A stretch of 8,910 nt of DNA from a virus (lineage: Duplodnaviria; Heunggongvirae; Uroviricota; Caudoviricetes): the IMG/VR virus record IMGVR_UViG_2778261536_000007, one strand, 5' to 3'. A program made the translations under genes and the position numbers. Positions 1-7,271 of the stretch are shown here, in pieces; position 1 is the first letter of the stretch, and the number at the start of each line of letters is the position of its first letter. A model generated the notes under the pieces. It was not told the origin of the DNA and ran no database searches. It saw only the letters and a list, made by a program, of their open reading frames with translations.

Positions 1-133
1 CATAACCTGAATCTGAGGCAGCACCTGGCACGGCTGGGACGGAAGTCGCTGTCGTTCTCAAAATCGGTGGAGCTGCATGACAAAGTCATCGGGCATTATC
101 TGAACATAAAACACTATCAATAAGTTGGAGTCA

Positions 134-481
134 TTACCCGCCGTGCGGCCTCAACACCCGAAAAGCTTCTTTAAATCTCTGTCGCAAATCATCACGCCAG
201 GCATCTTTATTCAGCCGTCCATATTTCTTTCCCATCCAGGCGTTATCACCAACACGCTCAAGATGCGGAGGGTCTAATACAACCATCGAAAAAGATGCGT
301 CTGCAAATGATAATGCACGAAAATCTGCGATAATGTCAGGGCTGATAATCAAGCGTCTCCCATTGCGTAATGTGTATCCTTCTTTTCTGATATCGCTGAA
401 TATCGCCCGTTTGTCAGACTTATCGAACCAGAACATGCGGCTGCCACAGCACATATCAAGAATGGTTGCCGGTGCACTCAC
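134..481 (-). CDS. SAM-dependent methyltransferase-like protein (115 aa), possibly an amino-methyltransferase fragment
   Basis: Translation carries a motif I-like ILDMCCGS, a DPPH tetrapeptide (motif IV of N6-adenine/N4-cytosine methyltransferases) and VLRPHGG. Ends at a double stop TAATGA with no room for a target-recognition domain. Probable GTG start at 481 overlapping the upstream stop (GTGA), AGGA about 9 nt upstream. Confidence 0.55.
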   Translation of the reverse strand: MSAPATILDMCCGSRMFWFDKSDKRAIFSDIRKEGYTLRNGRRLIISPDIIADFRALSFADASFSMVVLDPPHLERVGDNAWMGKKYGRLNKDAWRDDLRQRFKEAFRVLRPHGG

Positions 482-900
482 TGCGCCACGTCCTGAAAAT
501 TACCCTGATAGAAAGCCAGTATGCGCTGCATAACTTCGCTCTTCCGGCACTCGCGACAGATTATGTTTAGGCGACTGTCGTAGCGACGTATTTCTCCGTC
601 AGGTGATGACCAGATAAGGTCCGGATCAACCACAGCAGGTTTCTTCACCTTTGCCCTCGAGAGTTTTTTGCGGGCGTTTTGCCAGTCCTTACGCGCCTGT
701 TCAGAGGGGAATAACCCGTAGCCGGAGTTGTATACATCGCCACTGGCTACCAGCTCTCTGGCAAGAACGCTCATCAGATATCTAGTCGCACCTGTTTTAG
801 CTTCCAGTTGCCGTAACGTCTCACGGCCGCTCTGGCGCACGAGTTCCACCACCTGCCATTTAATTTTTTCCCGCTCTTCTTGTGTAAAAACTTTTGCCAC
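478..900 (-). CDS. Hypothetical phage protein (140 aa)
   Basis: Long ORF with GTG start preceded by a strong SD (AAGGGGGA, 3-4 nt spacer). Stop overlaps the start of the downstream methyltransferase-like ORF. No recognised catalytic motif. Confidence 0.5.
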   Translation of the reverse strand: MAKVFTQEEREKIKWQVVELVRQSGRETLRQLEAKTGATRYLMSVLARELVASGDVYNSGYGLFPSEQARKDWQNARKKLSRAKVKKPAVVDPDLIWSSPDGEIRRYDSRLNIICRECRKSEVMQRILAFYQGNFQDVAQ

Positions 901-940
901 AAGTCCCCCTTAAAATTACCTCATGACCTGAAATCAACAC

Positions 941-1906
941 TTATCCTCTGAAACCAGGCGGAATTTCTGTATCCGGTTCAGAAATATGATTAACACAACG
1001 CTGTACAGGTGAACGTCCCAGGCGGATGACCAGTTCGTCCCATTTTTCGCGGAGCTTTGACGGGCTCATGATGTTTTTTACCCAGAATGGATCTCGCTGA
1101 ACCCGACCAAACATTTCGCAAATTTGTCTGTGGCTTCTGCCATCCAGCATCCGCATTGTGCGCACGTCATTGGCCCAGGCAGTCCAGTTAGGCTCTTTTG
1201 GTCGCATGATCTCGCCATCATCACTGGCTGCCTGTTCGTAGAGACCCACGATCCGCCCCCAGATCCACTGCGCACACGCCAAATCCTCCCTGCTACCCCA
1301 CTGGCGTTTTTTCGCACTAAACACAACCGCGTCGGAGTTCCGGGTTAAAGAATCCTGTTCAGTCGTCTGCGGGTCCGGTTGCGAAGCTTCCGGACGAAAA
1401 GTGTTTTTATTCTCTGTAGTAATCTCTGTTGTATTCTCTGTAAGATCATCAGGCCATTTTGACCCGATGACATTGGGTCGTTTTGAACCAATGGAGCGTT
1501 TCATTTTGACCTCTTCCATCGTGTCATTTTGACCTGATGGAGCGGCGCATTTTGAACCGATGGATTCGCTCAATTTGCCACCATCTAAAAGCTCGCTCCC
1601 ATAGTTGATCGTGTAGAAATTGGTCATATCGCGCTTTGATTTATTGAGCTTTTCACAACGCAAAAGCCCCAGCGTTTTCAGACTTGCAAACGCGCGCTTT
1701 AACGTTGATTCTGACCAGAATGGGAACTGTTCAAGCCATTGTTCCGTTGTGTTATAAATCCAGCGAACACCATCACATTCCATGCCGGAGTTGGTATCTC
1801 TCAACCAGTAGTGCAGTTGTTGCAAAACAATGGCTTCGTTTAAGCCAATTTTCATTGCCAGCTGCGTGTTTATAACCAGTGGGCGTTCAGCAAAAAGAAG
1901 GCTCAT
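941..1906 (-). CDS. Phage replication initiator (lambda O-like role) with DnaT-like C-terminal tail
   Basis: First ATG at 1906 (the track's longer ORF to 1960 starts on TTG with no SD). Iterons sit inside the gene as in lambda O, giving a repeated SIGSK peptide. C-terminus ...SEPDTEIPPGFRG resembles the end of E. coli primosomal protein DnaT as I remember it. Confidence 0.7.
   Translation of the reverse strand: MSLLFAERPLVINTQLAMKIGLNEAIVLQQLHYWLRDTNSGMECDGVRWIYNTTEQWLEQFPFWSESTLKRAFASLKTLGLLRCEKLNKSKRDMTNFYTINYGSELLDGGKLSESIGSKCAAPSGQNDTMEEVKMKRSIGSKRPNVIGSKWPDDLTENTTEITTENKNTFRPEASQPDPQTTEQDSLTRNSDAVVFSAKKRQWGSREDLACAQWIWGRIVGLYEQAASDDGEIMRPKEPNWTAWANDVRTMRMLDGRSHRQICEMFGRVQRDPFWVKNIMSPSKLREKWDELVIRLGRSPVQRCVNHISEPDTEIPPGFRG
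1408..1442. repeat. Three tandem 12-bp AT-rich repeats (core TCTCTGT) flanking the iterons
   Basis: TCTCTGT recurs at 1411, 1423 and 1435, a 12-bp period, immediately next to the iteron block inside the replication gene. Confidence 0.6.
1455..1570. repeat. Putative replication origin: five direct iterons of ~23 bp (CATTTTGA[C/A]C + GATGGAGCG-like)
   Basis: Copies begin at 1455, 1479, 1502, 1525 and 1548 with 23-24 bp spacing, all inside the initiator gene. Confidence 0.7.
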
Positions 1907-2408
1907 AATTCCATCCAGCTTTTTGTTGGTATTGCTGTCGATACGCAAGCTTGAAAGCAATTGCTTTTTCTATAAGTTCGTCAGTTTCACGATCCACTAC
2001 GGCAGGATCAGCAAAAAGCAGTCCGGACTCCACCACATCGCCATATTCTTTGTTTAACCCGGCGATCATGCACGTGATGCTTTTTCCGTCAGTAATTTCA
2101 CGATACAACCTGAAATCACTAATCCGGATAGCCTCCATAATCGCAGGCACTAGCGCCGTGAACTTTTCACGCTTATCCCTGGTGTCGATAGCCTTCCAGC
2201 GTTCGAATATCTTCACTCGATTAACACCAAGCGCTCGCTGATCAACCGCGCCACCTTCATCTGTGACACGCTGAACATCGATGTTCGGGCGCTCTTTCAA
2301 AGCCCAGAATGCTTCAGTGATTAATATCGTCGCCTGCTCCTGTGTCATTCCTGGTCGACATATCCAGGCATCCAGAGCCTCACGAGCCTGTTCAGGAGTG
2401 ATTTTCAT
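1887..2408 (-). CDS. Hypothetical protein (173 aa) in the cII position downstream of cro-like dicC
   Basis: ATG start at 2408. Overlaps the dicC stop by 17 nt and the replication gene start by about 20 nt. Function unknown; slot corresponds to cII/YdaT-like regulators. Confidence 0.5.
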   Translation of the reverse strand: MKITPEQAREALDAWICRPGMTQEQATILITEAFWALKERPNIDVQRVTDEGGAVDQRALGVNRVKIFERWKAIDTRDKREKFTALVPAIMEAIRISDFRLYREITDGKSITCMIAGLNKEYGDVVESGLLFADPAVVDRETDELIEKAIAFKLAYRQQYQQKAGWNYEPSFC

Positions 2409-2631: not shown

Positions 2632-2651
2632 TTGTTAGACTTTTCTAACAT
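2632..2651. promoter_or_regulatory. Operator palindrome TTGTTAGA-N4-TCTAACA in the dicC/dicA divergent promoter region (OR-like)
   Basis: Near-perfect inverted repeat in the 80-bp intergenic region. Same motif recurs at 3142-3163. A degenerate copy may lie at about 2684-2698. Confidence 0.65.
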
Positions 2652-2699
2652 TATTGTGCGCGGGATACCTAAGTCAAGAAAAATTAGAATTACCTAACT

Positions 2700-3590: not shown

Positions 3591-3809
3591 ATGCAGAAAC
3601 GAGAACCCGTCATCATCGCGCCAGACTATACCGATGATGAACTTTATGAGTGGATGCGCCAGAAAATTAATGCAGCGCAGGATTTGAAATGGGCCAATGA
3701 AACCAGGGCTAAGCAGGCTGAAAATCTGTCCGCTCTGGAGCAGGATATCACCAATCTGGAAAAAGCAGCGGCATTAAGCATTGCCAGAATGATTACATAC
3801 CCGCGTTAG
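3591..3809 (+). CDS. ydfC: Small protein YdfC (72 aa)
   Basis: ATG preceded by GAGGA with 6 nt spacer. Size and position match ydfC of the Qin dicB operon. Confidence 0.7.
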   Translation: MQKREPVIIAPDYTDDELYEWMRQKINAAQDLKWANETRAKQAENLSALEQDITNLEKAAALSIARMITYPR

Positions 3810-4149
3810 TAGCTAATCAACAAAGCTAAGGTTAGTAATTAAGGAGTTCTCCACGGGTGAGGTGGAGTGCGTGCGCCGGACACGGGTGAGCATCCGGCAC
3901 TGACAGTTTACTGAAAGGATATTTCCCTGAAAAGTCAGACCATAACGCGAAAGCGCACGGCGAGGTAGCTGGTTCATAGATAGCCTGTCGTTAAATTTTC
4001 GTCGACCGTGCGCTTCCGGTTGTGGCAACCCGCGAAATGGCGCGGCGGTAAGTATGGCGGGGTTATTCCTTCCCCGTTGAGGACACCGGGTTGTCAGGTT
4101 GACCATACGCTTAAGTGACAACCCCGCTGCAACGCCCTCTGTTATCAAT

Positions 4150-4202
4150 TTTCTGGTGACGTTTGGCGGTATCAGTTTTACTCCGTGACTGCTCTGCCGC
4201 CC
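4150..4202 (+). ncRNA. dicF: DicF small regulatory RNA (53 nt), processed from the dicB operon transcript
   Basis: Sequence TTTCTGGTGACGTTTGGCGGTATCAGTTTTACTCCGTGACTGCTCTGCCGCCC matches DicF as I remember it. It sits between ydfC and dicB with no protein-like ORF and ends in a GC-rich stem plus T-run. Confidence 0.7.
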
Positions 4203-4207
4203 TTTTT
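4165..4207 (+). terminator. Rho-independent terminator-like 3' end of DicF (GGCGG...CCGCC stem followed by TTTTT)
   Basis: GGCGG (4165-4169) can pair with CCGCC (4197-4201), directly followed by TTTTT (4203-4207). Read-through is needed to express dicB downstream. Confidence 0.45.
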
Positions 4208-4376
4208 AAAGTGAATTTTGTGATGTGGTGAATGCGGCTGAGCGCACGCGGAACAGTTAAAACCAAAAACAGTGTTATGGGTGGATTCTCTGTATCCGGC
4301 GTTAATTGTTAACTGGTTAACGTCACCTGGAGGCACCAGGCACTGCATCACAAAATTCATTGTTGAGGACGCGATA

Positions 4377-4846: not shown

Positions 4847-5104
4847 ATGAGTAAAGTCTTTATTTGCGCCGCTATTCCTGACGAACTGGCAACAAGGGAA
4901 GAAGGCGCTGTGGCTGTAGCCACAGCCATTGAAGCTGGCGACGAACGCCGTGCTCGAGCAAAATTTCACTGGCAGTTCCTGGAACATTATCCGGCTGCTC
5001 AGGACTGCGCTTATAAATTTATTGTCTGCGAGGATAAACCTGGCATACCCCGCCCTGCCCTCGATTCATGGGATGCTGAATATGCAGGAAAACCGCTGGG
5101 ATGA
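4847..5104 (+). CDS. Hypothetical small protein (85 aa) preceding the exonuclease gene
   Basis: ATG with GAGG about 10 nt upstream. Its 3' end overlaps the beginning of the long exonuclease ORF in another frame. Confidence 0.55.
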   Translation: MSKVFICAAIPDELATREEGAVAVATAIEAGDERRARAKFHWQFLEHYPAAQDCAYKFIVCEDKPGIPRPALDSWDAEYAGKPLG

Positions 5105-7271
5105 GGAGTCTGCTTCTTTTGTCCCGGTTGAGACTGAATCCGATCCGATGAACGTCACTTTTGACAAGCTGGCCCCTGAAGTACAGAACGCTGTCATGGT
5201 TAAGTTCGACACATGTGAAAACATCACCGTTGATATGGTTATTAGCGCACAGGAATTGTTGCAGGAAGACATGGCAACATTCGACGGACATATCGTTGAA
5301 GCGTTGATGAAAATGCCAGAAGTTAACGCCATGTATCCGGAGCTTAAGTTGCACGCCATTGGGTGGGTTAAGCATAAATGTATTCCTGGTGCTAAATGGC
5401 CCGAAATTCAGGCAGAGATGCGCATCTGGAAAAAACGTCGCGAAGGTGAACGCAAGGAAACCGGAAAATACACGTCTGTTGTTGATCTCGCCCGCGCCAG
5501 AACCAATCAACAGTACACTGAAAATTCAACAGGAAAAATCAGCCCGGTCATTGCTGCCATTCATCGCGAATACAAGCAGACATGGAAAACACTGGATGAC
5601 GAACTGGCCTACGCTCTCTGGCCTGGTGATGTGGATGCCGGAAACATTGACGGCAGCATCCATCGCTGGGCAAAAAAAGAAGTTATCGACAACGACCGCG
5701 AAGACTGGAAGCGTATCTCGGCATCAATGCGCAAACAGCCTGATGCCCTTCGCTACGACCGCCAGACTATTTTTGGCCTTGTCCGTGAGCGTCCGATCGA
5801 CATTCACAAAGATCCCATAGCACTGAACAAATATATCTGCGAATACCTGACGACAAAGGGCGTGTTTGAGAATGAAGAAACAGACCTGGGCACTGTTGAT
5901 GTTCTCCAGTCATCAGAAACACAAACTGATGCAGTGGAAACTGAGGTATCTGATATCCCAAAAAATGAAACCGCGCCGGAAGCTGAACCATCTGTAGAGC
6001 GTGAGGGGCCGTTCTATTTCCTCTTCGCAGATAAGGACGGAGAAAAATACGGTCGCGCAAACAAACTTTCTGGTCTGGATAAGGCACTGGCTGCTGGCGC
6101 CACTGAAATCACAAAAGAAGAATATTTTGCCCGAAAAAATGGCACATACACGGGCTTACCGCAAAATGTAGATACCGCTGAAGATTCAGAACAACCAGAG
6201 CCGATAAAAGTTACCGCTGACGAAGTAAACAAAATTATGCAGGCAGCCAATATCAGCCAGCCTGACGCCGATAAGTTGCTTGCTGCATCACGTGGTGAAT
6301 TTGTTGAAGGGATTAGTGACCCGAATGATCCGAAATGGGTTAAGGGGATCCAGACCCGCGATTCTGTGAACCAGAACCAGCATGAATCGGAACGGAACTA
6401 CCAAAAAGCGGAACAAAACAGCACAAATGCGTTACAAAACGAGCCAGAAACGAAACAGCCTGAACCAGTGGCGCAACTGGAAGTGGAAAAAGTCTGCACC
6501 GCCTGCGGTCAGACCGGCGGCGGCAACTGCCCTGATTGTGGCGCGGTGATGGGCGACGCAACATACCAGGAAACATTCGATGAAGAGTATCAGGTTGAAG
6601 TTCAGGAAGATGATCTGGAGGAAATGGAAGGCGCTGAACATCCACACAAGGAGAACACTGGCGGCAATCAGCATCACAATAGCGATAATGAAACTGGCGA
6701 GACGGCAGATCACTCAATTAAGGTGAACGGTCATCACGAAATCACATCCACCAGCAGGACGTGTGACCATCTAATGATCGACCTTGAAACCATGGGAAAA
6801 AATCCTGATGCCCCGATCATCTCAATAGGTGCAATATTTTTCGATCTGGAAACTGCTGGCGGAGTCATTGATCGGGACACCATTAAATGGTGGCTTAAGC
6901 AATCACGCGAAGCGCAATCTGCCATTATGACCGATGAAATCCCGTTAGATGATGCACTGTTACAATTGCGGGAATTTATCGACGAAAACTCCGGTGAATT
7001 TTTTGTTCAGGTTTGGGGAAATGGAGCCAACTTCGACAACACGATTTTGCGCCGTTCATACGAACGGCAGGGGATCCCCTGCCCGTGGCGTTACTACAAC
7101 GATCGCGATGTACGCACAATCGTTGAGCTGGGGAAAGCCATAGACTTCGATGCCAGAACGGCTATTCCATTCGAAGGTGAGCGCCATAATGCACTTGATG
7201 ACGCCCGTTACCAGGCAAAATACGTTTCAGTTATCTGGCAAAAACTGATCCCGAGTCAGGCTGATTCTTAA
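5082..7271 (+). CDS. RecE-like protein (annotated in databases as exodeoxyribonuclease VIII) with C-terminal DEDDh (DnaQ/RNase T-like) 3'-5' exonuclease domain
   Basis: Track ORF 4929-7271 starts on TTG inside the upstream gene; first in-frame ATGs are 5073 and 5082. Middle segment DKLLAASRGEFVEGISDPNDPKWVKGIQTRD resembles E. coli RecE as I remember it. C-terminal about 170 aa carry DEDDh motifs: DLETMG, WGNGANFDN, HNALDDARYQ. Confidence 0.75.
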   Translation: MQENRWDEESASFVPVETESDPMNVTFDKLAPEVQNAVMVKFDTCENITVDMVISAQELLQEDMATFDGHIVEALMKMPEVNAMYPELKLHAIGWVKHKCIPGAKWPEIQAEMRIWKKRREGERKETGKYTSVVDLARARTNQQYTENSTGKISPVIAAIHREYKQTWKTLDDELAYALWPGDVDAGNIDGSIHRWAKKEVIDNDREDWKRISASMRKQPDALRYDRQTIFGLVRERPIDIHKDPIALNKYICEYLTTKGVFENEETDLGTVDVLQSSETQTDAVETEVSDIPKNETAPEAEPSVEREGPFYFLFADKDGEKYGRANKLSGLDKALAAGATEITKEEYFARKNGTYTGLPQNVDTAEDSEQPEPIKVTADEVNKIMQAANISQPDADKLLAASRGEFVEGISDPNDPKWVKGIQTRDSVNQNQHESERNYQKAEQNSTNALQNEPETKQPEPVAQLEVEKVCTACGQTGGGNCPDCGAVMGDATYQETFDEEYQVEVQEDDLEEMEGAEHPHKENTGGNQHHNSDNETGETADHSIKVNGHHEITSTSRTCDHLMIDLETMGKNPDAPIISIGAIFFDLETAGGVIDRDTIKWWLKQSREAQSAIMTDEIPLDDALLQLREFIDENSGEFFVQVWGNGANFDNTILRRSYERQGIPCPWRYYNDRDVRTIVELGKAIDFDARTAIPFEGERHNALDDARYQAKYVSVIWQKLIPSQADS

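Follow-up and report, generated by a model that had tools for sequence, protein, structure and literature searches.

A 140-amino-acid protein encoded on the minus strand of a defective Escherichia coli prophage was found to belong to the family that joins Pfam DUF977 with the Ren protein of phage lambda, and its gene closes the early-right (pR-type) replication operon of that prophage. The prophage lies on a stretch of 8,910 nucleotides of Caudoviricetes DNA, called the window here, and the product of the gene is called the window protein. We read the window protein as a Ren-type, probably non-essential accessory of the early-right replication module, and would give this reading a probability of about 50%. 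The features of the locus, in window coordinates, are as follows.

1..138, strand not assigned: end of an IS1 element, inserted in the methyltransferase gene.
139..481, minus strand: remnant of a class I SAM-dependent methyltransferase gene, cut by IS1 (the intact form has 157 aa).
478..481, minus strand: GTGA stop/start overlap of the DUF977 gene with the downstream ORF.
478..900, minus strand: coding sequence of the DUF977 / Ren-like protein, 140 aa, identical to WP_001151262.1.
502..582, minus strand: conserved C-terminal motif (codons 107-133), in common with lambda Ren.
583..648, minus strand: basic linker, poorly conserved and predicted to be disordered (codons 85-106; from the alignment, AlphaFold2 and dN/dS).
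649..900, minus strand: predicted winged helix and helix 67-84 (codons 1-84; from AlphaFold2 pLDDT and dN/dS).
905..911, minus strand: Shine-Dalgarno sequence AAGGGGG, with a 4-nt spacer to the GTG start of the DUF977 gene.
941..1906, minus strand: O-like replication initiator, the upstream gene of the DUF977 operon (PHROG 391; start at 1906 as called by PGAP).
2650..2677, minus strand: pR-like promoter TTGACT-16-AATAAT, before the cro/dicC-like gene.

The preliminary description had listed the window protein as one of unknown function; database searches show that it is no orphan without a family. The protein is named 'DUF977 family protein' in RefSeq, under the accession given above, and it matches Pfam DUF977 (PF06163) at E 5e-29, with 101.5 bits against a gathering cut-off of 22.1 and with its residues 1-136 aligned to model positions 1-134 of 134, the full length of the model. 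Among the PHROGs it falls in group 142 ('Ren-like exclusion protein', E 1.6e-47), which is also the group of lambda Ren (NC_001416, 40280..40570; E 1.6e-41). When the two alignments were compared as profiles with hhalign, the DUF977 alignment matched the Ren-family alignment with 96.7% probability (E 3.4e-10); the match spans the winged helix-turn-helix (wHTH) region and the C-terminal motif of both families. BLASTP of the window protein against lambda Ren aligns the C-terminal 20 residues only (window NIICRECRKSEVMQRILAFY, lambda Ren NLVFKECRQSAAMKRVLAVY; 10/20 identical, E 2e-6), and lambda Ren itself scores below the Pfam DUF977 threshold. Searches with the window protein returned no family from NCBIfam and no meaningful sequence match from the PDB. 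Judging from these alignments, DUF977/LygF and lambda Ren form one family with a two-part architecture.

Proteins 67-99% identical to the window protein are named either 'LygF' or DUF977 in phage records, and the name LygF carries no function. A representative search gave 99 clusters at 50% identity, many of which are fragments, and a scan of species-level genome contigs with a narrow alignment gave 7 loci, five of them of Escherichia/Shigella type. The DUF977 family is therefore small and enterobacterial. The window protein is an ordinary, previously catalogued member of the DUF977/Ren family. One candidate member was ruled out: YdaW of the K-12 Rac prophage, considered as a DUF977 protein, is a DUF1627 protein with no similarity to the window protein. 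Positions 3753-4313 of locus L093 are this E. coli K-12 Rac ydaW, which encodes a truncated DUF1627 protein. The ydaW gene was reported as a blocker of the retron-Sen2 toxin, and since YdaW belongs to a different family, that result is not transferable to the window protein.

The open reading frame is 423 nt long, starts with GTG at 900..898 and ends with TGA at 480..478. The ORF that follows on the minus strand, 134..481, has its GTG at 481..479, so that stop and start overlap. The preliminary description had reported a GTG start, a strong Shine-Dalgarno sequence and a GTGA overlap with a methyltransferase-like ORF, and all of this is borne out; the ORF is real. The AAGGGGG box is in place, and the start codon sits at the same aligned position in 88 related loci, as GTG in 56 and ATG in 32, each time with a Shine-Dalgarno sequence before it. 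The commonest variants among these loci have an AGGGGG, AGGAGG or GGAGG box before the start. Their DUF977 stop sits in a GTGA(G) context even as the next gene differs, which places the mosaic junction between replication module and variable region at or just past the stop. Window positions 100-2000 are 100% identical to E. coli 17MR471, in which PGAP calls both coding sequences, keeps the 4-nt overlap and likewise gives the DUF977 coding sequence 423 nt. The ORF is intact in the window, the protein is 100% identical in 18 other retrieved loci, and the clusters of its close homologues represent thousands of member sequences.

Purifying selection on the DUF977 family is strong. The median pairwise dN/dS over 52 distinct DUF977 alleles is 0.11. 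Two blocks of the N-terminal winged-helix domain have values of 0.06 and 0.016 and the C-terminal motif has 0.14, and the last seven codons are neutral, with a dN/dS of about 1. The conserved start position and the dN/dS of 0.11 together indicate that the DUF977 gene is real and constrained.

An AlphaFold2 model of the window protein, built on a 16-sequence alignment, predicts a winged helix followed by one helix, then a flexible basic linker, and at the C-terminus a short helix that carries the conserved motif. Block-mean pLDDT is at least 90 over residues 11-80, and the predicted elements are helices at 7-24, 29-36 and 40-53, a two-strand wing at about 57-64, and then a helix at 67-84. Confidence is low over the basic linker (85-115) and moderate for a C-terminal helix at 122-132. 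A helix-turn-helix had been guessed earlier in the segment RYLMSVLARELVASGDVY, and a structure prediction suggested as a check; the segment falls in the modelled winged helix, as the recognition helix and the first wing strand, which agrees with the guess. DUF977 was previously recognised as a winged helix (PMC2686095). In a low-confidence AlphaFold2 model (mean pLDDT 62) of a protein resembling lambda Ren, the secondary-structure elements follow one another in the same order. The folds closest to the wHTH of the window protein are MarR/ArsR/IscR-type regulators and Z-alpha domains, and a BFVD fold search with the window-protein model gave no match at E <=0.001.

The C-terminal motif reads Y-x4-N-x-I-C-x-E-C-R-x-S-x-x-M-x-R-[VI]-L-A-F-Y. 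The form that defines the lambda Ren family is N-x-[IV]-[CF]-x-E-C-R-x-S-x-x-M-x-R-[VI]-L-A-[FV]-Y, to which the window protein conforms. When DUF977 and Ren proteins are aligned together, N112, E117, C118, R119, S121, M124 and R126 never vary.

The prophage in the window is a Qin-type (dicB/dicF) defective lambdoid E. coli prophage adjoining rspB. It carries DicF RNA, dicB, ydfA-D, an excisionase and an integrase, and it is by DicF, dicB and ydfD together that the element was identified as Qin-type. The DicF antisense sRNA lies at 4151-4202 on the plus strand (Rfam RF00039, 76.7 bits), and dicB and ydfD then follow. On the minus strand the operon runs in the order cro/dicC-like gene, cII/YdaT-like gene, O-like initiator and DUF977, and the pR-like site listed above is the sole strong promoter-like site on that strand upstream of the DUF977 gene. 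The earlier placement of the gene immediately after the replication initiator, in the same operon, was thus correct, with the O-like gene at 941..1906 directly upstream. The prophage is defective in several respects: IS1 has inserted into it, the methyltransferase is a pseudogene, the exonuclease gene is frameshifted, and there are fragments of IS elements. An ORF at 4929-7271 on the plus strand encodes 780 aa with a C-terminal 3'-5' exonuclease domain; PGAP records this gene as a frameshifted pseudogene of 2425 nt, and its homologue is exodeoxyribonuclease VIII in phage records.

Gene order was compared across a close set of 88 loci whose DUF977 proteins are 91-100% identical to the window protein, and in 84 of them DUF977 is the last gene of the replication module. 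Its neighbours vary on both sides. The upstream neighbour is the O-like initiator of the window in 40 loci, a second initiator type in 14 and a DUF1627 protein in 30, and the downstream neighbour is a methyltransferase in 23, a 137-aa zinc-ribbon protein in 18, a QueH-like protein in 12 and one of at least 10 other types in the rest. Alleles 91-98% identical to the window protein sit between differing combinations of these neighbours. Distant homologues (34-42% identity) were found in five contexts, four of which are informative, the fifth contig being too short. All four have YdaS/YdaT-like regulators and an initiator ahead of the DUF977 homologue, in some cases together with an IstB/DnaC-like loader or a DUF1627 protein. 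Lar-like or other unrelated genes lie downstream, and in locus L097 the gene beyond the immediate neighbour encodes a Dam methylase. Because the module-end position is constant amid varying neighbours, the conserved feature is the position that closes the replication module. The DUF977/Ren family marks the boundary between replication module and variable region in lambdoid prophages, whichever type of initiator or loader is used.

To our knowledge, no member of the DUF977/Ren family, lambda Ren included, has a known biochemical activity. What is recorded of function comes from lambda, the only phage for which the ren phenotype is known. The ren gene is non-essential (PMC10695390). According to the supplement of bioRxiv 10.1101/2021.04.19.439022, ren mutants grow poorly on Rex+ lysogens and have suppressors in O and P (the original work being Toothman and Herskowitz 1980), O, P and ren overlap and are co-translated, and the two-hybrid signals of Ren with RexA and RexB are modest or weak. 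A RexB-Ren contact was seen with one yeast two-hybrid vector pair, a pair with which Ren was rather promiscuous (PMC3224144).

The analysis shows the family, architecture, operon position and selection described above; from the lambda record we infer how the window protein could act as a Ren-type accessory. The winged helix would dock it at the origin complex, either to DNA or to one of the proteins there, and the C-terminal helix would bind a partner, for example the initiator or an exclusion protein. The replication complex could thereby be tuned in such a way that its intermediates do not trigger the Rex-type abortive-infection or exclusion systems of resident prophages. In the subgroup of the window protein, however, the recognition helix has little basic character, which leaves DNA binding uncertain. 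Searches by tblastn with lambda RexA and RexB found neither gene in the window or in the DUF977 loci, with flanks of about 5 kb; the single match came from locus L089, which matches the query only at residues 108-131, the C-terminal motif. As rexAB is missing from the flanks of the DUF977 loci, protection against the phage's own Rex is not the conserved role, and since DUF977 is found in prophages that have no rexAB of their own, the name 'Ren-like exclusion protein' should be taken as a label and not as a demonstrated function.

The fold would also suit an ordinary winged-helix transcription factor, acting on the variable delayed-early ('nin-like') genes or on its own operon. The nearest folds named above are those of regulators and Z-alpha domains, wHTH proteins from neighbouring prophage genes appear as putative transcription factors in surveys of E. 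coli (PMC9308461), and distant family members have R-R or R-H in the recognition helix. We nevertheless consider a transcription factor unlikely: DUF977 keeps its 91-100% identity across loci whose downstream genes have nothing in common, so there is no conserved target operon, and the most conserved part of the protein is the C-terminal motif, which lies outside the wHTH. Lambda ren, moreover, has no known regulatory phenotype.

It is also conceivable that at this particular locus the gene has no function and is merely carried along in a prophage that is decaying. The defects listed above (IS1, the pseudogenised methyltransferase, the frameshifted exonuclease and the IS fragments) speak for this, and because the prophage is defective, the DUF977 gene may currently do nothing at the window locus. 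Yet the ORF is intact, its protein recurs unchanged in those 18 other loci, and strong purifying selection is found across the family, which makes a mere passenger a rather improbable explanation.

A third explanation starts from the place of the gene beside the initiator, in a module that has no P- or DnaC-like gene: the DUF977 protein could be a substitute for a helicase loader, linking host DnaB to the O-like initiator as an adaptor. The preliminary description had noted that a loader usually occupies this slot and that the protein has no Walker motifs. The second point stands, as the Pfam search found no ATPase signature, and neither Pfam nor NCBIfam gave a match at E <=1 to a Walker/AAA+, lambda P-family or helicase-loader domain in the window protein, whose size and fold are those of a wHTH. 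As to the first, the gene does not occupy the loader slot: elsewhere DUF977 follows DnaC/IstB-type loaders, with or without DUF1627 between them. The order in Shigella phage 75/02 Stx is initiator, DnaC-like loader, DUF1627, DUF977, and locus L099 has a pair of initiator and DnaC/IstB loader before DUF977. The lambda homologue ren comes after both O and P, and it is dispensable (PMC10695390). A protein that occurs both with and without a DnaC-like loader does not replace the loader, and this explanation is very unlikely.

Loading in the window module is more likely to fall to the O-like initiator, with its DnaD-like region and DnaT-like tail, working with host DnaB-DnaC. The O-like protein also matches DnaD-like helicase-loader PHROGs, and its last 20 residues, QRCVNHISEPDTEIPPGFRG, share 14/20 positions (70%) with the end of E. 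coli DnaT; together these matches suggest that recruitment of the host's loading machinery is probably done by the initiator. The tail is encoded at window positions 941-1000 on the minus strand, the final 20 codons of the gene. The second initiator type, found in 14 close loci and unrelated in appearance, has the same DnaT-like C-terminal tail, and the initiator of one distant module has a Pfam DnaT domain. DnaT is required for the recruitment and loading of DnaB in replication restart (PMC5778457). A tail common to two initiator types suggests DnaT mimicry, by which modules without a loader may recruit host DnaB-DnaC. The O-like gene also seems to contain the origin, probably at window positions 1408-1562: five iterons with a spacing of 23 bp (CATCnGGnCATTTTGAmCnGATG) occupy 1447-1562, and three tandem 12-bp units, TATTCTCTGTAG, adjoin them at 1408-1443.

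The gene on the other side of DUF977 had been described as methyltransferase-like, and the overlap taken to suggest that the two are co-translated as a unit. In the window this gene is only a remnant, interrupted by the IS1 junction at 138/139 at about codon 113, and relatives free of IS1 have an in-frame nonsense codon after codon 118. The co-occurrence check proposed for the pair was run over the 88 close loci and the distant homologues. The overlap part of the proposal stood, but the pairing did not prove to be conserved: only 23 of the 88 close loci have the methyltransferase as neighbour, of which 19 are nonsense-truncated (118 aa), 2 are IS1-cut and 2 are intact. The preliminary description had itself named absence of conservation of the pair as grounds for rejection, and the idea of a methyltransferase unit fails on that ground; it was largely refuted by the non-conserved pair. 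That DUF977 should serve as a co-translated DNA-targeting or regulatory subunit of the enzyme is thus barely credible: the GTGA overlap is found in 23/23 loci with this neighbour, and DNA modification or anti-restriction genes often lie downstream elsewhere (Lar-like genes, or Dam one gene on), but the GTGA context accompanies the commonest DUF977 variants whichever gene is next, 21 of the 23 methyltransferases are truncated beside an intact DUF977, and the distant homologues have other downstream neighbours.

Returning to the Ren-type accessory, a broader version of it may be put forward tentatively, as a possibility that we hold to be distinctly less probable than the reading of the window protein itself. 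Ren/DUF977 might be a third component that lambdoid replication modules have in general, whatever their initiator or loader type, and which acts on the origin complex and either masks the replication intermediates that trigger Rex-like sensors or governs the switch from theta to rolling-circle replication. If this were true, the DUF977 branch, which is found in many E. coli genomes without a rexAB of its own, would be a tractable system for the biochemistry of lambda ren. Few gaps are left in the gene map of lambda, and assigning a function to Ren would fill one of them. The window locus itself adds little: RefSeq gives the protein the same annotation, and Pfam and PHROGs already contain the family.

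Among known systems, lambda P and the DnaC/IstB-like ATPases resemble the window gene in neighbourhood only, as genes beside an initiator; they resemble the window protein neither in sequence nor in domains, and they co-occur with DUF977 elsewhere. The MarR/ArsR/IscR and Z-alpha wHTH proteins have 8-16% sequence identity to it, and none of them has the DUF977/Ren C-terminal motif. DUF1627 proteins such as K-12 Rac YdaW are also small, contain a wHTH and lie at the end of lambdoid replication modules, and in Rac- and Stx-type modules the DUF1627 gene is often directly upstream of DUF977, but they are a separate family. The Qin prophage of K-12 has no replication genes, whereas the Qin-type prophage of the window retains them. 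Compared with Pfam PF06163 DUF977, the 'LygF' of Salmonella and of Rac- and Stx-type phages, the window protein has no notable difference. Lambda Ren is shorter, at 96 aa against 140 aa, and the window protein has in addition an N-terminal helix, the predicted helix at 67-84 and the basic linker of about 25 residues. The cysteines of the motif also differ, with C-x-x-C in the window protein and F-x-x-C in lambda Ren, and the lambda prophage carries rexAB, whereas none was found in the prophage of the window. Lambda Ren nonetheless shares PHROG 142, the wHTH and the C-terminal motif with the window protein, and lambda ren ends the replication block of the pR operon, translationally linked to its neighbours, in the same slot that the window gene occupies.
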